A DNA stretch of 64,000 bases from Lama guanicoe (taxonomy: Eukaryota). The position numbers and the translations under genes were made by a program. Under the pieces are notes generated by a model. The model made no database searches. It was not told the DNA's origin and saw only the letters and a list, made by a program, of their open reading frames with translations. Numbering within the stretch: position 1 is the first letter of the stretch; each line of letters starts with the position of its first letter. The stretch covers positions 560,276 through 624,275 of the forward strand of contig MU057344.1 in the NCBI GenBank assembly GCA_013239625.1, written 5' to 3'. This document shows positions 4,563 to 61,650 of this stretch, one piece after another.

Positions 4563-4691
4563 GGGGAGAGGGTATGGCTTAAGTAATACAGCATGTGCTT
4601 AGCATGCATGAGGTCCTGGGTTCAATCCCGAGTACCTCCTCTAAGAATAAATAAGTAAACCTAATTGTCTCCTTTGACCAAAAAAAAAAAA
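4563..4691 (+). mobile_element. tRNA-Ala-derived SINE (camelid Vic-1-like)
   Basis: ggggagagggtatggctt...gcttagcatgcatgaggtcctgggttcaatccc...; A-rich tail. Confidence 0.85.

Positions 4692-19064: not shown

Positions 19065-19106
<42 letters not shown>
19065..19106 (+). repeat. (AC)21 microsatellite
   Basis: Direct reading. Confidence 0.98.
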
Positions 19107-19439: not shown

Positions 19440-20900
19440 TCTGCAGGCGACCGGAGCACACGGAGCATCTTTACCTGGTTCTTTCCGGGACAGCTGCACC
19501 TGCCGAACCGGAGCCGTGCCCACCTCGGGGGCACAACCCCCGAGGCCGTGTCCCTCGCCCCGCGACCCCGCGAGGCCTCTGATCCTGCACCGCAGCTCAG
19601 GCGCCGCGGCCCCGCCCATCCCAGGTACCCCAGCCTCCGCCCCCGCCCCACCTGTGTCCCGCCCGCCCCGCCGCAGGAGCCGGGCGGACCCAGGGCGGGA
19701 GCGCAGCGCCAACCCGAGGCCTGGGGTCCGAGCGGAAGAGCGCCCCGCGACCGCGCCGTCGGGCCTGCGAGGCGGGGCCCGGGGACGCCATGTGGTGGAC
19801 ACATCACAGGAAAGGGCCGGGGCGTGACAGGCAGCAAGGGACCGTCCTACCCGGAGGCCGCGGGGCCTCCGGAAGAACGGCCTCGGACGACAGGGCCGAG
19901 CGCGAGCCGAGGCCCTGCGGTGGCCGGCCGGCAGAGGGGTCCGCGAGCCGGGGATGGGTGGGAGGAGGCTGGGGGCCGACGGGCTTCGGCCCGGACGCGA
20001 AAAGCGACCCCCGGAGACAGCCCGCCCCGCTGGCTCTATTCAGCGCTCCCGGCGCGAACCGGCCACCCACCGAGGAGCCCCGGGCCAGACGCCGCGCGGC
20101 CGGGCAGCCTGAGGGACGCGGACCCGGCCCCGGCCCGGCCCTGGAGGCCGGTCACCCGGGGCCCGCCTCCACACGGCGACCCGCCCACGTCCCGGCGATA
20201 GCGGCTCCGGGAACCAGCGGGGTGCGGGCAGGCCCGGGGTGGGCGGGCCGGAAGCAGAGGCGGGGCTAGAGGGCGGAAGTGCCGCCACGCTCAGAAGTCA
20301 TGGGCCGGAAGTGACGCGACAAACGGCGGCGACTCCTCGCTGTCCCGCGGGGGACGTCTCTCACTCTGGGCTTCTTGGTCGCCGCTCGTTCGCCCCCTTG
20401 GCACCCTCCGAGCCGTACCACCGCGGCCCAGTTGGAGGGGGGTGCTGCTGGGCGATTTCCCCCGCTGTCGTTCCCTGAGGGCCGTACCACCGTGGCCAGT
20501 CGGGGGTGGCGCCGCTGGGTGACTCCCCCCACGGTCGTCCCCTTGGCACCCTCCGGGCGGGGCGGTCAGTCCGTAGAGGCGCCGACCCGTAAGCCCGCGT
20601 GGGGCTGTCCTCGAGTTTTGGTTTCTAGGGGCATAAGTTCCAGCCCCGCCACCCCTACTTTAGACGAGGTCCAAGGGAGTGTACTGGTGAGGTAACTAGC
20701 ATCGGAGGAGCTCCAGGCGCCGCAGGATGCCGAGGCCACGCCCCCGACGGAGGCGCCGATTGGTCGAGCCGTGGAAAGCTCGGCCCGTGGGCGTGGCCTA
20801 GGTCCACATGGGCGCCGGGCTGCCGGCGCGTGGTCGCACCCGTGTCCACCGAGCATCTGCCCGGCTGGGCTCTACGCTCCGCTTACTCTTTAACGTAATT
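19440..20900. promoter_or_regulatory. SLC35E2B: SLC35E2B CpG-island promoter / non-coding first exon region
   Basis: CpG-rich; clustered ETS CGGAAG motifs at about 20249, 20274, 20306; CCAAT (minus) about 20759; candidate donor CAG|gtaaag at 19474. Confidence 0.8.
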
Positions 20901-25935: not shown

Positions 25936-27524
25936 GAAAGGATCTGAAAATAGTAATAAGTCTTTCAACATTTAACAAATTTTCAAGATACTAACAATAT
26001 GAAACGCTAAGAATTTACTTCAAAAAATCCAGTTTCCTAGATGGTTCCACATCATGCTTTAGGCCTTGGTTAACACCTGCTTTACTATCTGAACGAGGGG
26101 CCCGAGGCCTCCCGTCCGGACCTAAATCCGGGAATGTCGGCCCCTCTGCCGGTGGGAGGGCAGCCGAGCCTGGGGCGGACAGCACTGGACAGACACCCAC
26201 ACGGACGTCGGACTCATCCGGATGCATGGCCCCGGACGCCCTTCTCTCAGCAAGTGGCCTCCAACAGGGCGACGCGCAGACCCCGCCTGTCACTCCAGAA
26301 GTGAGTCCAAGAGAGGACAGGCGTCCGCCCTGCTGCTCTCACCAATTTAACAGGTGAAAATGCAACTCAGAGACAAGTCAAGTTACTCCAAAACAGAGGC
26401 CGTATTTGAGGCCCGTCAGGACAGTAACCAGGGGCCAAGGCCACGTGCACCCTGAGCCGGGTCCCCCCAGACTCCACACGGCCCCAGGGGTGCACATGCC
26501 CCACGCCAGCCGAGGGAGGCGCGAGGGCTGGAATGGCGGGGACTCCCCTGCAACCAAGACCCGTGGGGGAAGCAAGAGCAGGTCAACGTGAAACATCACC
26601 ATCAGCACCTTCCTAACCTTGTCCCCATGTCTCCGCAGTCACCCGGCTCTCACGGACAGCCAGCCACGCGGGCGGGACAGGATGGTCCCAACACACAGGA
26701 CACAGGGCAGACAGTGGAATGCAGCTCCACTTCACGACAGTGCAAACCCCTTTCCTCTGAAATCTCAGTGTGTACAACAAAATCTGTATGTGAGCACTTT
26801 CACAAAGTGTAAGAGAATCTCTAAAAAGCAGACACGGGATGGAAGACGCCTTCCCGGGCGCGGACGTGCCCTGCTTCACGAGGAATGTGTGCCGCCTGAC
26901 CCTCCCCCAGAGACTGCCAGGCCCAGCCAGCACCTGTCACACACGTGGGGGGGGGCAGACAAGGCCTTGGGACCAAGGTAGGAGGATCTGGGCAGGCTCA
27001 GTGCAGACCCTGAGGGGGTGGAGGGGACCCATCCGCCCCACCAACCACCCACCAACTGCTCTTCACAGAAGTGACCCACTGGTGGCTTAAGGGGAAAGTC
27101 GTGGTGGGTAAAGGAAGATTTTGGCTATGAGACATTTATTTTCAATAGCAAAGGACAGGCCATCCATTCTGATCCCCTCTGAATTTCAATGGACTGATTT
27201 ATGGAAGTTTCCTGACAAGTAATTACAAAGAGCCCACCCGGCTCGGCCGTCCCTGCCCAGAGACGGGCTCTGACCGAACCAGGGTTGGTGCACACAGGCT
27301 GACCTCAGAGCCCCAGCCGCTGCTCGCTTGCTTGCTTAGAAATGCAGAAAAGAAGTCATATTTAAAACATTAAAAACGGCTGATCTGGTCGACAGAAGGC
27401 AGGTTCTAGGCCCTTCCTCTGGCCACAGGCAGGGCGACGTGGCACCTGCTTGGGTGCTGGGCAGGGGCCTGCTCGCGGAGCGCACGTTCAGGCTGGCCCG
27501 TCCCGGGCGGGACAGAGCACAGGC

Positions 27525-27699
27525 CTAGCTTCCTGCCCCCTGCTCTCCGTCCTCCTCCCCGTCTTCGTCTTCTGTGAAATGGGCCTGTTTCTTCCGCACG
27601 TTCCAGTGCAGACACTGCGCCAGGCTCTCAAACCAGTCGCTCACAGGGTCCCGGACGCAGATGGAGGGGAGCGGGTAGCAAGAGGTAGTGATGCTGATG
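27525..27699 (-). CDS. NADK: NADK last coding exon (12)
   Basis: ISITTSCYPLPSICVRDPVSDWFESLAQCLHWNVRKKQAHF...GAGS*; TAG 27527-27525. Confidence 0.96.
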
Positions 27700-28084
27700 C
27701 TGAGGGAGGGGACAGGACGACACGGCCCCTCCAGCGCCCGCCGCCACCTTGCTCTGCCCGCCCACTGGCTGCGAAGCCTGGCCCTGGGTCCTCTAGTGTG
27801 TGTGGGGGGGTGTCGGGGTGGGCGCCTTGCCACTTTCCAGTCTGGCCCTGAGGACAACCAGAGGCTGGCGGCTCAGTGGTAACCCCCAGGACAGAACCAC
27901 AGACCCCCTCAGCCCACCCAGGTCCATGCAGGGACCCTAAGGGGTGGGGCTGCTGGAGAACAAGGGCACAGGTCTGCGATGTGCTCATACGAGACTGGGA
28001 CGGGCCCTCCAGGCTCTCGGTGACAGTGCTCTGCCTACAGGCCCCCGCCCCTCATGCCCTGCCCTAGCCCCATGGCCCACACAC

Positions 28085-28167
28085 CTGTCTCCATGGCGGA
28101 TCTCTTGTCTCTTGCGTCCATCGAAGGACACCCACGCGGTGTTCCTTGCTTCTGGTGACAGCATGAT
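28085..28167 (-). CDS. NADK: NADK exon 11
   Basis: IMLSPEARNTAWVSFDGRKRQEIRHGD; 83 nt. Confidence 0.96.
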
Positions 28168-28778
28168 CTGAAGGGTCAAGCGGGACAGGTATGGGCTCAC
28201 CTGCGTGCAGCTGAATGTCTCAGAACCAACCCTGGGGTGGCACTGTCCAGGAGGAGCCCACCAGGTGCCCAGGTCAGCTCCAGGCTATGAGAGCACTAAC
28301 TCCCGTCGGGCTGACACCAGCCCTGGGTGTGGAGGAAGGATGTCCGTCCAGGCCCAGGGTTCCCAACTATCTACCCTCTGCTGGGGACACGGGGCTGGCA
28401 TCTGGCCCTAGGCCTCCGAGCTCTCCGTGTCCCGCCAGGGCTCGCACCAGGGGCCCGCGGGTCTGCGGCGCCTGGCGTGGGGAACACCAGGTAGAGGAGA
28501 CAGAGATGTGGCCAAGCAGTGGCAGCCAGTCAGCTGCCAGGACGGGGCCCTGGGGGGGACATGCCGGGCAGGGTCACTCCTCACCCCGCCCCCACCCAAG
28601 ACAGATGGCCCCACCCACTCAGGTCAGAAGCCCTGCTGGAGGGGCCAGCCCAGCTTTCAGTGCCCCACTGCCCCCCACTCCACTGTCTCAGCAGCAAGTG
28701 CCAGGTGCACAGAGACCAGGACAGCACCGAGGGTCCCAGCCAAGGCCCCAGCCCACAGGGTGGAGGGTGTGCTGTGAC

Positions 28779-28936
28779 CTTGAGCTCGACGCCTGCAGGG
28801 ACCACGATGGGCCGGAAAGACAGCGAGTGCGGGCAGATGGGGGTGATCATGATAGCTGGGACGTTGGGGTGGATCATGGAGGCGCCAGCCGCAGCCGCAT
28901 ACGCCGTGCTGCCCGTCGGGGTGGAGACGATCACGC
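28779..28936 (-). CDS. NADK: NADK exon 10
   Basis: [12 protein letters not shown]...PAGVELK (NAD kinase motif); 158 nt. Confidence 0.97.
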
Positions 28937-29031
28937 CTGAAGGACAGGCTGCGGGGTCACTCTTGTGGTCACTCTCGCAGTCACTCTGATGCAGCGCCCC
29001 CATCCCCAGGGCAGGCCTGATGCCCACCTAC

Positions 29032-29131
29032 CATCGCCCTGCACTGTAGTGATGAGGTGCCCGTCCAGGTAGACGTCCACGTTGGACAGGTAGGAGGAGG
29101 GGCCTCTGTCGATCACGACCTCGTTCAGGAC
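29032..29131 (-). CDS. NADK: NADK exon 9
   Basis: [33 protein letters not shown] (NE motif); 100 nt. Confidence 0.97.
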
Positions 29132-29229
29132 CTGGGGTGAGGCCACTGCAGACTAAGGGGCCAGGCGGCACCTCCCCAGTGGGCCTGCCCCCGACCTCAG
29201 CACCCATGCTGGTCCTGGGCTCTCTGTAA

Positions 29230-29535
29230 ACCCTGAAAGGGGGGCAGGGAGCCGGGGGCGGGGCCCGGAGTCCAGGGGGACGCGCCCTCTGACCTGGTAC
29301 TGCATGACCTGCTTCCCGATCTCCGCGTCCAGGGCCGCGGCCAGCACCCCATTCTTGCTGATCCCGTTGGGGATGGCCACCTACCCTGAAAGGGGGGCCG
29401 GGGGCCGGGGGCGGGGCCCGGAGTCCAGGGGGACGCGCCCTCTGACCTGGTACTGCATGACCTGCTTCCCGATCTCCGCGTCCAGGGCCGCGGCCAGCAC
29501 CCCATTCTTGCTGATCCCGTTGGGGATGGCCACCT
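29230..29535. repeat. NADK: Tandem duplication, 2 x 153 bp, spanning the NADK exon 8 3' end and donor
   Basis: 29230-29382 and 29383-29535 differ only at 29246/29399 and 29250/29403. Confidence 0.95.
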
Positions 29536-29601
29536 TCTTCCCCCTCAGCTCCTTCACGACCCTGACCTTCAGCCGGCTCCGAAGAACGACAGCTGCGTTC
29601 C
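29447..29601 (-). CDS. NADK: NADK exon 8
   Basis: NAAVVLRSRLKVRVVKELRGKKVAIPNG...KQVMQYQ; 155 nt. Confidence 0.93.
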
Positions 29602-29920
29602 CTGGGGGCCGGCAGAGGCCACGCCAGGGAGGTCAGCAGGGCTGGGCAGTGGTGCCACAGGAAGAGAGCCCCCCTTTCTTCTCCCACATCGAGAGCAACA
29701 CTGTGCCTTCTGCAAAGATCAACCCGCGCACAGTACTGAACGTGAACGGCAGCCTGGCCTGTGGCAGCTCGGGCTTCTCACGGTCAGCAGAAATGTCTGA
29801 ACCACTCAGAATCTAGAAATCTCTGAGTCCGGAGACATTTCAGCACTGCTCTCTCTGCATCATCAAACCCCCAGCCAAGAAGGAAGGCAGCCCCGTGCAC
29901 TCCAGCACACTGCGACTCAC

Positions 29921-30023
29921 CCTGGATCACCTGGGAGACCTGGGACTGGAAGCTCTCGAAGCCGAAGGGGGTCAGGAAGCCCAGGGAGCCCAGGTGGAAC
30001 GCCATGACCGGGGGCACGCTGCC
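29921..30023 (-). CDS. NADK: NADK exon 7
   Basis: GSVPPVMAFHLGSLGFLTPF...; 103 nt. Confidence 0.96.
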
Positions 30024-31005
30024 CTGCGGGCCGGCGCGGCAGGTCACTCAGCGGGCCAGCTCCGCCAACGGCCACCCGCGCTACCCCAGCACTGAGGCAC
30101 CTGCGCCCCGACAGTCCTGGGCAGGGGGTAGGGCTGACTCGGGAGGTCCGTGGGACGGCGGGGCCGGGCAGGAGGAACAGCGGGGTGAGAGCTGACAGGG
30201 CTAACAGGGCCCCTGGCCCCGAGGGCAGGAAGGAGCTGGCGAGGGCGGGATGAGCAGAGCTGCTCTGACACACGGAGACCACGCCCAGGGGTTCTGGAAA
30301 GGTGGCAGGCCAGACAGAGACAGCAGGGAGGAGTGAGGACAGCAGGCAGGTGAGGACCTGCAGGCAGCGGAGGGCGGTGGCTGCGAGGAGGTGGGACGCC
30401 CCCGAGGCCCTCTCACTCCTGTTCTTTCCCAAGGGCTAACTCTGCAGCATTCCCGCCTTGCCGGGTTCACACCACACCTGGTGCCGAGGCCCCAGTCCAC
30501 ACTGCCCGCCGGGCCTGAGCCCCGTGCCCCGGACCCCTAGACGGCACGTCCACTTCTAGGCCGCTCTCTGGGGCCACTGTGCCTGAGCGACTTGCACACC
30601 TCGGCTAGGTCTCCCCAGGGCTCCTGCCTTGCTGAGAGTGGGGGTGGGTTCCGAATGATCCCACCGCTTCCTGTGCTGACCCTCACTGTCCGTGGCCTCC
30701 ACAGGGCTCCCCCCACCACGCCCTGGACAGTCAGCCTGTAGCTAAACCCATGCCCACCCCCGGAACACCCCCAGGACAGTCTCCCCACCACTGCCGTCTT
30801 CCCAGCCCAGCCCAGCCCAGGCCTGGCCACCGTTCTCTGGACGAGGCGGATGTGCCTGGCCTGTCACAGCTCCCAGGTGCTCAGATAGGAGGCGCAGCCC
30901 TTGCTATCACTTGTAAACTTGCTCTACTGCCAAGTGAAGAAATGCAGAGCAGGGACCTCCTCCCTGCTCCTCACGCGGCGCCAGGACCACCACCTGGAGA
31001 CCCAC

Positions 31006-31091
31006 CTGGAAGAGCGAGGAGGCGTAAAGCAGGGTCCCATCTCCTCCCAGGCAGATGATGAAGTCGATCTGATTAGAAATGTCATCATAAT
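31006..31091 (-). CDS. NADK: NADK exon 6
   Basis: YDDISNQIDFIICLGGDGTLLYASSLFQ (GGDG motif); 86 nt. Confidence 0.97.
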
Positions 31092-31206
31092 CTAGAAAAC
31101 AGAACAGCAGACACCAGAAAAGCCATCAAGCAGCCCCAACTTGCAAAGCCACCCACGCTGGGTGGGAGGCTCCCGCCAGGCTGGGAGCTCCCGGGGGACG
31201 ACTTGC

Positions 31207-31315
31207 CTTCCCTGAAGGTGCAGAACCTCCTCTTCACTGGCCCGAAGCGGTCATCGTTCACGATGGCTGGGTCCTCCAGCACCTTCTTCTCCACGTACAC
31301 GACCATGTTGTTCTC
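31207..31315 (-). CDS. NADK: NADK exon 5 (GC donor)
   Basis: ENNMVVYVEKKVLEDPAIV...FCTFRE; donor AAG|gcaagt. Confidence 0.93.
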
Positions 31316-31604
31316 CTGGGAGGGACAGGCCAGTGACACCAGGTCAGAGGGTGCTGGTCCCCTGCGAAGCCGCCTCTTGGCATTTTACGACAAGAGGGGA
31401 GCGAGCCCTCTGTTGTAGCCGGCAAACTGCCGTCTGCCTGCTCACGCCGTGTTTCTAGGGTCCCAGAGGCTCTGTGGCGCTCGGCTACAGACGCTGCGCT
31501 CCTGGAGGGAGTCTCCTGCCTCTACAGCGCTGGAGTCAGAGCCTCGGAGCTGGGCTAGGAGCCGGCTGCGTCCCGCGACCCCCCAGGTGGGCCCCGCCAC
31601 CCAC

Positions 31605-31734
31605 CTCCATCAGGTGCACACAGAGCTCCTTGAACGGCTGGAGCAGGCTGGCATCCCGGATCTTCTTGATGACCAGGACGCTCTTCGGGGGCTTGTTCCA
31701 CGTCAGCCGCTGGCTGGCAGGGTCCTGGATGTGC
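31605..31734 (-). CDS. NADK: NADK exon 4
   Basis: HIQDPASQRLTWNKPPKSVLVIKK...HLME; 130 nt. Confidence 0.96.
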
Positions 31735-33168
31735 CTTGGAGGGGAGAGGAGCGTGCACCGTCTCAGCCCCGTGCGAGCGCTGCGCCGTGGTGTGAGCGAC
31801 TCAGCCGCCCCCGAACTTCCGTGGCAAGCAAGCTCCCATTCACAAGTCAGCAGCAGGGCCCGGGGCAGCGAGACCCCGCGTGGCCACCACGGCGGGAGCG
31901 ACACCTCGTGCCTGTCCCAAGCACAGGAAGCACAGCGCCGAGCGACCCTGGTGTGAAATAGGGTCTCTGGGCGGCCACACTGTGTCCCTGCAGGTTCCTC
32001 TGTCACAAACGCACCCTCTGGGGCATCCAACGTGGGGGAGCCTGGGAGGGGGGCAGTATACAGGAAATTTCTGCACCTTCCCCTCCCAACACAAAACTGC
32101 TCAATAATTTTTATTTAAAAAAAAAGGGCCTCCCTGAAAACAAAAGCCCACATCCCGTGGCACTCTGTGGCTGACGTGGTCTGTGGGCAGCAGGTCGTCC
32201 CTGATGGGCAGGGGTGTCCCCTCCCCCAAGGCCAGGCCCCCCAGGATGACTCTGACAGCTGTGAGCATCCTGGGAGACGCCCCGCCGGCCGCGGATGAGC
32301 TGGCACATGTGTGGGGAAGCGGATGGAGGGGCCGGCTCCGCGGTCAGCACGCACCTCGGCCTGTTGGGAAACAGTCCTGCAAAGGGCAGTGCGGCCGGCG
32401 GAGACTCCCTTCTGGACTCAAGTTCCCCAATCGGCCTAGGGCCAGCGCCTCCCTGAACGCCCACCGGCCCGCAAGCAACTTCCAAAACCACCACTCAAAC
32501 CATGAAGGAGCGGCGGGCGTCCAGCCCAGCACTCACCCCTTCCAGGCGATTCTGCGAGGGGGGCGGCGCTCAGGCCCCTTCAGGTCACACTCGTGCTCAG
32601 GGGGCTGGGGCTGCCCACTCAGCATTGCAGGTCCGCTCAGCCAAGGCGGGGAGAGCAGCGCAAAGCAGCCCCCAGACCCACCCGCGCCGGCACCACAAAC
32701 TCGCTTCTAATCCTCAAAACTGAAAACAAAACCTGGAGTAAAGTGACTTGTTCCAGGTTCCACAAAAGGACGGGGCCGACAGTGCCTCCTCAAATCAAGT
32801 CCCACAAACCACGCTGGAGTCGACCTTCTTATCGTTTACACTGTCCTCCAGTCTGACCGCCACTCAAATCAGAGTCCTCAGGGTCCCCTGGAGCAGCAAA
32901 GAGCTTGGACTCGGCCACCCCGCTCCCTGGAGGCTGGCCACAAGCTCTGCCCAGAGCTGCCGGGAGGTCAGGACACGCCCCAGGCAGCCTCAGGCGGGCA
33001 CTGGGCCGCGGAACCGGCTTGGCCCTGGGGGAGGAGCTCACAGGACGGGCGGGCCCTCAGACTTTGCCCCTCTGCCTGGCTCGTGGCCCCTCCGGCCCTG
33101 AGACTCTTCTGCACCCAGCCAGAGCCACCCAGGTGCCATCGGCTTGGTCTTGGGCACCAACTGGTCAC

Positions 33169-34185: not shown

Positions 34186-34323
34186 GGGGGAGGGAGTAGA
34201 GCTCAGTGGTAGAGTGTGTGCCTAGCATGCATGAGGTCCTGGGTTTAGCGCCCGGTGCCTCCATTAAAAATAAATAAATGAATAAAATCTAATTACCTCC
34301 TCCCTGAAATTAAAAAAGTTAAA
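34186..34323 (+). mobile_element. tRNA-Ala-derived SINE (Vic-1-like) with 15-bp TSD
   Basis: A/B boxes; TSD aag(c/t)acacctgagcc at 34171-34185 and 34324-34338. Confidence 0.9.
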
Positions 34324-38329: not shown

Positions 38330-41300
38330 GACAGGGCTGCCTGTGCAGAAAATCACACAGAGAGACAAGAGCGACTGTCACAAGTGAGTTTATCGGGAAG
38401 GTTGCAGGAGACTAAGTGAACATACAAAAATCAGTTGTGTTTCCACACTAGCAACGACAGTAAGAAACTGACATTTAAAACCCCATTGACAGCAGCATGA
38501 AGTCCAGCACATGCAAGGGTGCAGCTGCAATGCAGTGCCTCCTCCCAGCCGCGAGGTGGGCAAGTCTGGCGTGCGACGGGCCCCGCGACGGCCTCAGAGG
38601 ACAGAACCGACGTGTGTATCTGAAAGGTGCTGACAGGGCGGACGGTGAAGTTTCTCACAGGAAAACAAACTTCTCACTACATGCAGGGACAGACGCCAAC
38701 CAGGCTTACTCTGCTAATCATTCCACAACGTTTGAAAAACAGAATCCCAGCGTTTCATGTAAATAATACGTAACTAACATTGCGTGTCAACTGTACCTCA
38801 ATAAGAAGTATAAGCCCTGTACACTGAGATGGCCAAACACTGCTGGCAGAGCTTAGAGGAAACAAGTAAATGGAGACACGTCCACGTTTGCAGACGGGAG
38901 GACACACTGTTGCTAAGGTCTCAGTGCTCCCCAAAGTGACCGGCAGATTCTACCCAAACCCAGCAAACAAAATCCTGCCCTTTCGATAGGAAATGACAAG
39001 CTGATTCTAAAATGAACGTAGAAATTTAAAGGACCTAGAATAGCTAAAAAAAAAAAAAAAGACTGAAAAAACAATGTTGGAGGACTAACACTACCTGATT
39101 TCGTGACTTGTGGGGAAGCTACAGTAACCAGATGAGGTGGCGCCCATGTGAAGGTCGACACAAGGTCGAGGGAACTCGCACACGTTCAGTCGGTGGGTTT
39201 TCAACAGAGGGGTCTCACCGGGGAGGGCAACCTTTCCAAACAGCTCCAGGAAGACTCGACAGCCGCGTCTGAAAGAATGAAGCTAAACTCTTTTCTCACA
39301 TGAGATGCAAAGAGCAACTCAAAATGGATTACAGACCTAAGTGTAAGGCTCAAAACCATAAAACTTTTAGAAGAAAGCACTGGAGAAAATCTCAGCGGCC
39401 TTGGGTTTGGTGAATCTTAAAAGGAACACACAGAACACAGACTTCAGAACTCGACAAACTGAACTTCAGTACAATTAAAATCTTTCACTCTTCATAAGAC
39501 ACTTAAGAAAGTGAAATTACAAGCTGTAGACCAACAAAATACATTTACTAAATGTATGTGTGACAAAGGAGTTGCTTCTAGAAAATATGAAGATTTCTTA
39601 AAACCTGGTAAGAAAACAACCCAGCTAAAACATGGGCAAAGACCCCATGTTCGGCAAACAGGCAGGCGGAGAGGCGCCCAGCAGCGTGCCACGAGGGGAC
39701 GCCAGCTCACAGCACGGCGGGCCCCCACCCGACCAGGGCGGCCCCCCACCCCACCAGGGCGGCCGGCGCCAGTTCCCCCAGAGCCAGTCTGCAAGTTTAA
39801 CGCGGTTTCTATAAAGACCCCAGCCAGCTTTCTTGTAAGTAGGGACAAGCTTACTCTAAAACGTGTATGGGAGGGAAAGGAGAGCGAAGATGGTGTGTGA
39901 GAAGCCGGATGAGGGGTGAGTCCCCTCTGAGACGCGCTCTAGGACTGCAGGATCAAGGCGGCGGGGCGGGGGCCAGAAGCAGAGCCATGCAGACACAGCC
40001 CGCTGCCTCTGACAGGCGGGCGATGGCAAGTCAAGGAAGGCAGGAGCATCCTTCCAAGGGCGGTGCTGGATCCGCTTCGCCCCCTAGGCAAGAAGCGAAC
40101 TCGGCCTCACCTTCACACCTGAGGCAAAAATTAACTCAAAATGGGTCGAAATGGCTTAAGTTAAACATAAGACAAACTATAACTTTTTTTAATCCTTTTG
40201 TTTTTTGTTCAGGAGGGGGCATAATGAGGTTATTTATCTATTTATTTATAAATAACGGAGGCACTGGGGACTGAACCCAGGACCTTGTGCATGCTAAGCA
40301 CACGCTCTACCACCAAGCTACACCCTCCCCCTCCAAACATATACTATAAAACTTTTATTAGAAAACAGGAGAAAGTTTTGGGTACCTATGACTAAAGAGA
40401 ATGTTTTGTACACGATATAAAAAGCACAGTTTGTAAGAGATTTTAAAAAATCGATAAACTAGGCTTCGTTGAAATTAGAGACGTGCTCTGTGGAAGACCC
40501 TGTTAAGAGGATAAACAGCAAGCTACAGACTGGGAGAAAATGTTTTCAAACTAGTTATCCAACAGAGGATTTGTATCTGTAACAGAAAGAACTCTCAAAA
40601 TGCAACAGTGGAAAGCCAAACCGTCTGACTGTTAGAAGAGGAGCTGACCGCAGAGGATGTGCGGAGACTGCGGGAGGAGGCTCCACGCCACCCCCACCCC
40701 AGGAGGGGATTAAAATCCCAACGTGGCGTCCCTGCACACACCAGAACGGCTCAAACAATTAAACGCTAGAGAGGCTGCCGGGAAGCGCCCTCTCCCACAC
40801 TCCTGAAAGGTCCTACAGTTTCTTATGCACAGCCCAGCCACTGCATTTATCCCAGAGAAATAACTGCTGTTCACAGAAAAACCTGCACATGAACGCTCAC
40901 AGCTTTGCAACAGCCCAAAACTGCAGAGGGCGCAAACGTCTCCCAGCTGGTGAACGGGGCAGCGAACTGCAACTGGTCCTACAACAAAGTGGCGCCCGGC
41001 AGGCGGGGCGCTCTCAGGGCCTCCGCGTGAACCAGGCCAGTCCCAGGCGGTAACGTAACGAACGCTCCCACGTATACAACCTTCTCCCAATGACAAAATT
41101 AGGGAGAGGCGGAGAACGGTGGTTGCCAGCAGTGTGAGGAGACCTGGGGTGGGGGCTCCTTGGCACAAGGGGACAGCTGCGAGCCTGCACTGCGGTGGGG
41201 GTCATACAGATGCGCACAGGGTGACACTGGAGAGGAGCACACACACGTCGAAACTGCTTTAGTCTGAGAAAGGGGTGCATACGGTGGCGGGACTCTTCCA

Positions 41301-59399: not shown

Positions 59400-61650
59400 G
59401 ACCTGGCTGCTGCCTGACAGAACCAAGCACCGGCGCTGCCAGAGAACCCCGAGTTTCCGTGACGCAACATTCACCAAGTCCAGGACGCAATTCAGAACTC
59501 TAGCCATCCTGAGAAATAGGAAAACGCCACCCGTATTCAAGAGAGAAGAGCTGTCAAGACCAATCTCAAGGGATTCGCCCCTGAAACCGGCAGCCAGGAA
59601 ACTTACAGGCAGCTCCTAGAGCGCCGTTCCAGGGTGTCAAATGCGCTCAAGACAAACAGAAAGCCAGGAAACCTCAGCAGAAACATGACGACTTTCTTTT
59701 TCGAAGCAAACATTCTAGGACTGCAGACCAGAACACGTGACACAGACGGTTTGCTGGGAGTCCTGACAGTGCCCTGGCGGTGACAAAGTCACACGTGCTG
59801 GAGGACAGATCTGAAACGAGCAAATGTGAAGGGGCGGGAGACCAAAGAAGAGCGAGCAGAGCCACAGGGACCTCAGCACTGACGTGCACGCCACTGGAGC
59901 ACGGAGGACGCAGAATGGGGCGCAGGTGTCCAGAATCCCCGAACTTCAGTGAGAGACAAAACCTCACAGATGCAAGGTGGTAAAGCACAGTAAGGAGAAT
60001 TGCTCCGAAGCCTATCCGTCGTGCTACCAGAAGCAAAGAAAAATTGCTAAAGTGCTAAAAGGTGAAAAAAAAAAAAGAGCGCCCACTCAGAATTCAGTGT
60101 GTCCAGCAAAACACTCCTCAAGAATGAAAAAGGGGAGGGTGTAGCTCACTGGCGGAGAGCGTGCTTAGCATGCACGAGGTCCTGGGTTTCATCCCCAGCA
60201 CCTCCATTAAAATTAAAAAATAAAAATAAATCCAATTACCTCCCCTGCACCAAAAAAAAAAAAAAAAAGGATTCTGAAGGACAACGGACGTGTCACATAA
60301 ATGAGAAGGCAGAGAACGCACAGCGGGCAGGTCTGCACCGACTGTAAGAAACACCGAAGCAGCTCACTGGCTTGCAGGGCCCCAGGAGAAGGCTCACGGC
60401 TCCCGTGACAGACAAGCACTAGAAATGGTAAAAATCCGAGTACATGCAAAAACACTACTCAGATTTCTTCAAGCAGCTAGGAATGTTTAAAGGAAACAAA
60501 ACAACGTATTGTGGGGGCTTCTAACACATGTAGATGTAACAGCAATGAAACTTCATAAAGAGCGAGGAAGGGCAGAAAATGGGCCTTTAAGGCCCGAGGT
60601 TCTTGCATTTTACACAAACGCTGCAATATTAACTCTGAGTGGACCATGAGAAACTGCAGGCGTAGGTGGTCATCCCCACATAGAGCACTGAAAGACAAGG
60701 CAAAGAGGGACGCAAACGCCCTCAGACAGAACTAACACAAAATGCTAACAACTCAAGTAGCCAGGAAGAAGGCAGGAAAGGCGCGCATGGGGCCGCCTGT
60801 GGGGAGGAGGCAGCAGCGGCCTCCACGCCGGCTGAAGGCAGAGGCACCGCAAACGGACGAAGAGCCGACTGCGTGCTGCCTGTGCGCTGCCTGCGAGGAG
60901 CTGTTTAGAAACGCTAAGCTGAGCGAAGTGAGGGGCAAACACAGCAGGCAGGCGGGCGCAAGCACGGGAGGCTGGAGTGGCTGTGCTGCGCTTTTCCACA
61001 GTGCTCTGAGGGACAAAGGGGCACTTCAGTGCGGCAGGAGGGCCAAGTCGTCCGGAAGCCGTGACTGTCAGAGGTGCACCCGCTTCACTGCCGGAGCTCA
61101 ACACGCACGAAGCAGAAACTCCCCATAACCAGAGATGCCAGCATCCCCACCTCAGTACCTTATAGAAGTAACAGCAAAGTACAGAAGATCGGAGCAGTGT
61201 CACAAGTCCTGTGCTGCGGGACACACCGAGAAGCCACCTGGCCAGCACACGACAGACTGGCCCGCGAGCAGCACGGCGGTAACCGCCGCCCCGCTGAAGG
61301 CAGGTCTCTGTACACGTGGAAAAGCTGGAACGGCACAGGGCGTGTTCTCTGAACATAACCTACTACTGATTTTTAATCAAATGCTGCTGTATCAGAAAAC
61401 TTCAGATACTTGAATATTAAGCAACCTGCTTCTAAGTAACCCAAGAATCAAGTCGTCAAAGGGGTATCCAAAATATTCCACGCTGAATGATACTACAGCT
61501 GAAGCATGCTTGGTGGGCAATTTATAGCTTTCAGTGCTTATATCTGAAAAAGAAGGAAGAAACTCCGGAGCAAGCCAAAGGCAGGAAATGACACAGGACA
61601 GCAATCAATGAACAAGGGAGTCTATCCCTGAAAGGACAGAGGATACACTC
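59400..61650 (+). mobile_element. Highly degenerate L1M fragments in GNB1 intron 7
   Basis: cccactcagaattcagtgtgtccagcaaaa (ORF1-like); aagcaacctgcttctaagtaacccaagaatcaa, gggcaatttatagctttcagtgcttatat (ORF2-like). Confidence 0.6.
60132..60268 (+). mobile_element. tRNA-Ala-derived SINE (Vic-1-like)
   Basis: ggggagggtgtagctcactggcggagagcgtgcttagcatgcacgaggtcctgggtt...; poly(A) tail. Confidence 0.88.

Follow-up and report, generated by a model that had tools for sequence, protein, structure and literature searches.

The question raised by this locus is whether a 153-bp tandem copy at exon 8 of NADK is giving rise to a new 87-nt exon and a 66-nt mini-intron, as an earlier sequence-only reading of this Lama guanicoe DNA proposed, or has some other origin. 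In the window (the whole stretch of 64,000 nucleotides that was analyzed), the two head-to-tail copies are confirmed as part of the assembled sequence (TRF: period 153, 2.0 copies, 98% matches; Table 1). The proposed exon and mini-intron are poorly supported, and the chance that the repeat itself exists in the animal is put at somewhat below even. The favored reading, which appears reasonably probable, is a false tandem duplication in which two assembled stretches with a 153-base overlap were placed one after the other and left unmerged; the caveat of an assembly artefact that accompanied the original proposal was well placed. The weights given to the readings here (a mis-join reasonably probable, a real damaging allele unlikely, a real silent duplication more so and a productive new intron very improbable) are judgements, not computed values.

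NADK is read from the minus strand and, in that direction, the unit starts with the final 89 nt of exon 8 (29535-29447) and continues into 64 nt of the intron. This composition, with the exon 8 donor included, agrees with the earlier description, as do the two mismatches between the copies (29403/29250 and 29399/29246 in the base comparison), both of them intronic, and the lengths of 66, 87, 92, 162 and 315 nt that had been given. The join is blunt, the period extending on neither side, and shows no microhomology. There is no other exact run of at least 25 nt at periods of 20-500 in the 64 kb, so the repeat is not a chance occurrence; N letters are absent from the window. The claim that the breakpoint falls at an AG|GT proto-splice site stands as far as the content of the unit is concerned, since the unit begins with this 4-mer, but the join itself precedes the AG|GT point by 2 nt and the 4-mer occurs three times in the 155-nt exon, so that a break near one of them is unremarkable. 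The junction region shows no special RNA structure (folding z of +0.81), and Rfam gave no match at positions 27000-32000. In an alignment with the solved human NADK, the repeated segment is located just before the NE motif.

Table 1. Features at and around the NADK exon 8 repeat (positions in the window)
Feature	Position	Strand	Description
Copy 1 (upstream in NADK)	29383..29535	-	last 89 nt of exon 8, first donor, 64 nt of intron; two differing bases near 3' end
Copy 2 (downstream)	29230..29382	-	unit as in copy 1, running on into the remainder of the 162-nt intron
Blunt junction	29382..29383	.	no microhomology, no N
NADK exon 8, 155 nt	29447..29601	-	acceptor 6.8 bits, donor 8.2 bits
Duplicated 87-nt exon part, 29 codons	29294..29380	-	ends at second identical donor, 8.2 bits
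NADK exon 9	29032..29131	-	begins just before NE motif
Candidate Rogers-type 153-nt GT-AG intron	29381..29533	-	between two proto-splice sites; donor 5.8 bits, acceptor -1.6 bits
Proposed 66-nt mini-intron	29381..29446	-	sole candidate branch A 23 nt from donor (-44 from TAG)
Junction TAG	29381..29383	-	in-frame stop on read-through and weak acceptor, -1.6 bits
CAG acceptor 5 nt upstream of junction TAG	29386..29388	-	12.2 bits; use would give frameshift or stop
New donor-like site made by junction	29379..29387	-	7.5 bits; exon end would be 29385; use would give premature stop
Codons K260 (starts 29509) and I272 (starts 29473)	29471..29509	-	E and V in named alpaca and wild camel NADK
Canonical G-quadruplex motif, copy 1	29392..29416	+	G4Hunter 2.84, top-ranking in window, 9 nt from junction, holds both mismatches
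Twin G-quadruplex motif, copy 2	29239..29263	+	G4Hunter 2.56

The proximity of the junction to the top G4Hunter window and the location of both mismatches inside the motif count in favor of a mis-join. The score of 2.84 is reached by fewer than 0.005% of the 25-nt windows in the 64 kb, where canonical G-quadruplex motifs number 43 and 3.2% of the positions are at most 10 nt from one (9.7% in the NADK exon 4-12 region). One mismatch is 17 nt and the other 21 nt away from the junction (chance 0.04-0.05); a re-copy of the preceding 7-mer would account for both at once. None of the 11 CpGs in the unit differs between the copies; together with the clustering of the mismatches, this indicates that the difference did not accumulate by clock-like ageing, and an old age of the repeat calculated from its 1.3% divergence was rejected on these grounds. 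The two clustered mismatches are also compatible with error-prone replication and possibly represent two alleles of one animal. At G-quadruplex motifs, Illumina mismatch errors are reported to be 2.39-fold higher and depth 0.81-fold, and mismatch error is raised in Illumina, HiFi and ONT data (PMC10519405).

A false duplication could have been produced as follows. Sequencing would stall and err at the G-quadruplex motif in intron 8, so that one assembled stretch would stop 9 nt past the motif, with two wrong bases inside it, and the other would reach about one short-read length past it; the mismatched ends would fail to merge, and a later step would connect them gaplessly. In that case, exon 8 would be single in the animal and intron 8 would have its normal 162 nt. 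This scheme links the observed geometry, motif, mismatch placement and absence from named proteins (see below) to inferred reads and assembly steps, and its equation of the unit length of ~150 with a read length is drawn from common read lengths. False duplications are described as common and as originating from allelic differences and read errors; most are separated by gaps, and some are joined by incorrect gap filling (PMC9516828), and short-read scaffolders and assemblers can leave overlapping contigs unmerged (PMC5368935). The NADK repeat resembles the false duplications, homotype or heterotype, of Ko et al. (PMC9516828) in its near-identical adjacent copies, its few clustered differences, its error-prone tract and its absence from the gene models of relatives. 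It differs from them in the lack of a gap between the copies, which argues against an artefact, and in that the class is defined by read depth, k-mer multiplicity and pair discordance, whereas the NADK repeat is judged from the assembly. Also against an artefact, the GC-rich first exon of NADK can be aligned frameshift-free over 92 codons and the window has no further repeat of this kind, which suggests that the assembly is of good local quality, perhaps made from long reads. If the duplication is false, it warns that convincing exon duplications may arise in assemblies where a short, GC-rich intron contains a G-quadruplex site.

The protein comparisons count, weakly, for a mis-join. A search with the exon 8 peptide yielded 123 protein matches, with camelid and whale NAD kinases on top. 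Among the best 120 of these, 101 are named mammalian NADK proteins (the 19 unnamed ones were left out of the repeat count), and in none of the 101, alpaca and wild camel included, is a 7-mer around the exon 8 peptide repeated; this count is weak evidence, because the protein set consists of cluster representatives only, and proteins cannot reveal a precise intron. A search with the intron read-through frame for camelid genomic proteins produced two candidates, neither of them significant. Two unnamed read-through matches (P0002 and P0011) have unrelated intron tails, are not camelid and are uninformative on the ancestral bases. In the named gene models of red deer and pangolin (P0032 and P0053), 45-50 residues are inserted where exons 8 and 9 meet; these resemble intron read-through rather than a repeat. 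Among the matches listed in a shallow check of the literature on NADK in camelids, NADK was not mentioned; passages of PMC6594971 and PMC12507031 concern NADK2 and NAMPT.

A point against the favored mis-join is a pair of amino acid changes common to both copies, which a mis-join does not predict. The spliced model of the window is identical to the named Vicugna pacos protein at 453 of 455 residues for NADK (P0006) and at all 405 for SLC35E2B (P0122), and its SLC35E2B shows 4-8 differences from three Camelus SLC35E2B proteins, which places the window in a South American camelid. K260 and I272 are the only differences from the named alpaca proteins in 860 residues, and the same codons recur in copy 2 (29356 and 29320). 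The probability that both fall in the repeated segment is ~0.03 within NADK and lower if SLC35E2B is counted. The segment is variable in mammals: it makes up 6% of the length and contains 18% of the NADK differences (from the 61 of 98 named proteins with a coverage of at least 93% and less than 20% difference). Lysine is present at position 260 in four of the 98 named proteins and isoleucine at position 272 in one, so both residues are tolerated. The shared changes could stem from one error-prone event on an exposed strand or from lineage differences and chance. The named Camelus dromedarius NAD kinase P0097 (385 aa) is a diverged second NADK-like copy with a changed NE motif and the 4-residue insertion of the upstream exon 10 acceptor (see below), probably a decayed paralogue. 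It was rejected as the source of the repeat because it shares the lysine at 260 but not the isoleucine at 272 and has many other differences.

A real repeat would be expected to cause a loss of NADK mRNA. The four genes in the window supplied 26 donors and 28 acceptors, located manually in the sequence and, in the case of NADK and SLC35E2B, also with the help of the named proteins. Small weight matrices built from these sites (leave-one-out for mapped sites) were used for scoring and are a crude stand-in for trained models. On this scale, the two donors of the repeat are equal (8.2 versus 8.2 bits). In model substrates with two identical donors at least 45 nt apart, the intron-proximal one is reportedly used ~100% of the time (PMC3413131). 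The predicted loss follows because the downstream identical donor would be favored and its path includes a stop, 431 nt before the last junction. Translation of 12 splice paths gave three full-length products (the normal path and removal of 66 or 153 nt). In seven paths, an NMD-type stop falls 337-593 nt upstream of the last junction: use of the second donor or of the new junction donor, removal of 61 nt, retention, and splicing to the CAG from the proto-site or from exon 7, or from the first donor to the copy 2 CAG. The other two shift the frame and end in the last exon, so that nine of the 12 truncate the protein. The identity of the gene as NADK and the frame consequences that the sequence-only reading had assigned to its four outcomes are corroborated, including an in-frame stop at 29383-29381, where the exon 8 frame ends.

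An unlikely alternative to a mis-join is a real, recent and probably heterozygous duplication that originated at a fork stalled at the G-quadruplex. Error-prone copying through the motif would have been followed by re-copying or end-joining 153 nt back, and most transcripts, by way of the downstream donor, the junction donor or the CAG, would reach a premature stop and be degraded, making this a splice-disrupting, partial loss-of-function allele. The proximal-donor rule, the preponderance of NMD-type stops and frameshifts among the paths and the gap-free 64 kb are consistent with such an allele. So are the two shared codon changes, both of which read as C-to-T on the strand bearing the G-quadruplex, as expected of an exposed single strand, provided that each arose from the closest E or V codon. 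G-quadruplex motifs are reported to stall forks and to raise real rates of substitution and rearrangement (PMC12887540), which also weighs against the mis-join. However, the join shows no microhomology, and the proximal-donor rule comes from strong model sites rather than from NADK exon 8. Moreover, the mouse knockout of cytosolic NADK is said to be embryonic or preweaning lethal (PMC11233901, a review citing another review), so that a real allele would be expected to be harmful, which favors the artefact, and purifying selection should hold such alleles rare. Intragenic duplications crossing an exon-intron boundary and acting as splice-disrupting alleles are similar in the duplicated donor and partial exon, the exon extension and the premature stop; in the NADK case, these effects are predicted from sequence. 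If the repeat is real, it most likely marks a rare, damaging variant of cytosolic NAD kinase among livestock, and its veterinary interest would be modest.

Less probable still is a real duplication that is silent, in which exon definition would retain the 155-nt exon and its first donor, and intron 8 would merely be lengthened to 315 nt. Internal exons of 308 nt, the size that the extended exon would have, are near the upper range, which speaks for retention of the short form. So does the strong CAG before 29232, the twin of the one upstream of the junction, which scores 14.4 bits, is already present in the unduplicated intron and is spliced past in the named camelid models. Against silence stand the equal scores of the two donors combined with the bias toward the proximal site, and the short neighboring introns (95-319 nt), a size at which intron definition probably operates. 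The acceptor-like site of 14.4 bits in the unduplicated intron 8 (29232-29253, minus strand), 61 nt after the donor and unused in the named models, may be silenced by its nearness to that donor.

The remaining reading, and a very improbable one, is that a real duplication is starting a new intron, either a precise one of 153 nt that leaves the protein unchanged or one of 66 nt accompanied by an exon repeating 29 residues. Both paths require the junction TAG as acceptor. At -1.6 bits, this site is below all 28 mapped acceptors (0.4-14.9 bits on the small window-built matrix), and 39% of the 1034 AG dinucleotides in NADK score at least as high. Purines precede it, and another AG is found at -7, whereas the closest upstream AG in the mapped acceptors is at -14 or beyond. 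The sequence-only reading had taken this TAG as the acceptor of the mini-intron, a proposal that is not supported by the score, by the competing AG or by the 66-nt interval itself, which lacks any A from -8 to -43. By comparison, an A is present at -15 to -40 in 24 of the 24 mapped introns examined, the shortest of which is 91 nt. Branch points are reported to be mostly 18-35 nt upstream of the AG, the choice of which can go by scanning (PMC5378181). A donor-to-branch distance of ~50 nt is described as necessary, with 35 nt abolishing assembly on one substrate (PMC6692369). Since the sole candidate branch A is 23 nt from the donor, removal of either 66 or 61 nt is unlikely unless a non-A branch point is used, and the mini-intron is probably not spliceable. 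The interval resembles the very short U2 introns (PMC6692369; those below 73 nt make up 0.25% of human introns) in its length, its GT-AG ends and its GC-richness, but differs in its donor-to-branch distance and in that another AG precedes the TAG downstream of the pyrimidine tract. The 66-nt path would also add 29 residues to the protein: the loop at the repeated segment is 40-46 residues long in 87 of the 91 measurable named proteins, and its doubling by 29 residues is unprecedented among them, although the variability of the segment in mammals speaks for this reading. AlphaFold, run on alpaca NADK with 26 mammalian rows, gave a mean pLDDT of 46, with low confidence for the loop and the catalytic parts alike, which is uninformative on tolerance of a 29-residue repeat, and passages of the human NADK cryo-EM paper (PMC11759006) do not mention the loop.

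The 153-nt alternative, which the original proposal did not include, is the less unlikely of the two. In the tandem-duplication model of intron gain, the new intron runs from the GT of one AG|GT copy to the AG of the next, so that its removal does not alter the protein (PMC3265369). Thus, in the claim that a duplication across a proto-splice site had occurred, the AG|GT site in the unit is correct, but the mechanism predicts a 153-nt intron and an unaltered mRNA rather than the 66-nt product. By geometry, removal of 29533-29381 yields an mRNA identical to the normal NADK mRNA. The interval is of the GT-AG type, its candidate branch A at +110 from the donor is clear of the steric limit, and its donor exceeds 5 of the 26 mapped donors. 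An engineered duplication was spliced at 16% and 6% in two human cell lines (PMC3265369), and a review also admits 'imprecise' gains (PMC3443670). The NADK unit is similar to the Rogers model, exemplified by ATP2A1 intron 8 (Hellsten et al., PMC3265369; PMC3443670), in the AG|GT site, in copies more than 60 nt apart and in the unchanged protein upon removal of the 153 nt between the sites. However, the model duplicates exon-only sequence, whereas 64 of the 153 nt of the NADK unit are intronic and include the existing donor. Copying of this working donor leaves two stronger donors, of 8.2 bits each, which the 153-nt path must outcompete, and the new acceptor is very weak. The repeat is therefore, by its geometry, a candidate for rather than an established case of a Rogers-type gain. 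According to PMC3265369 (2011), precise intron gains had not been recorded in human, mouse, rat or dog after their common ancestor, and a shallow check of the literature on mammalian intron gain by tandem duplication at proto-splice sites found nothing on NADK among the matches listed. Ordinary RNA-seq would not reveal a 153-nt intron, as the resulting mRNA does not differ from the normal NADK mRNA; if spliced, it would be a mammalian intron caught at birth and, if also segregating, it would allow the Rogers model to be put to the test in nature, within a population. The RNA-seq test suggested earlier needs repair, because the junctions 29447>29131 and 29294>29131 share 89 identical upstream bases. 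Besides the 153-nt intron, the junction-made donor (which copy 2 lacks), the G-quadruplex at the breakpoint and the two amino acid changes common to both copies were absent from that reading.

A combination of these possibilities, namely a real segregating allele produced by one error-prone G-quadruplex event, the transcripts of which are partly rescued by a new 153-nt intron ending at the junction TAG, is similarly very improbable, and a 66-nt intron adding the 29-residue repeat is less likely than such a rescue. Mutually exclusive (tandemly duplicated) exons can be dismissed because only the last 89 of the 155 nt are copied, not a whole exon with its own acceptor, and swapping in the copy would result in a stop or frameshift and be non-productive.

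Several other features of the window deserve mention. Its genes, all on the minus strand, are in the order GNB1 (3' part, 63446 to ~48100), NADK, SLC35E2B and CDK11 (5' part, from ~3230), where the names GNB1 and CDK11 are presumed from the translated exons. NADK exon 10 (minus strand) has two acceptors 12 nt apart, at 28948 and 28936, of which the upstream one scores -4.4 bits against 6.1; its use adds four residues to the catalytic domain that are present in 10 of the 86 measurable named proteins (camelids, whales, sheep and a bat) and absent from the solved human NADK chains. The exon 5 donor at 31207 (minus strand) is a GC, resulting in a 115-nt GC-AG intron. Copies of a short interspersed repeat, which we take to be probably a camelid SINE, are located at 4566-4677, 34189-34300 and 60132-60243 (63-76% identity to one copy) and, by eye, at ~40230-40335. 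Finally, TRF detects an old 67-bp tandem pair with 80% matches upstream of SLC35E2B (20412-20543) and an (AC)21 microsatellite at 19065-19106.
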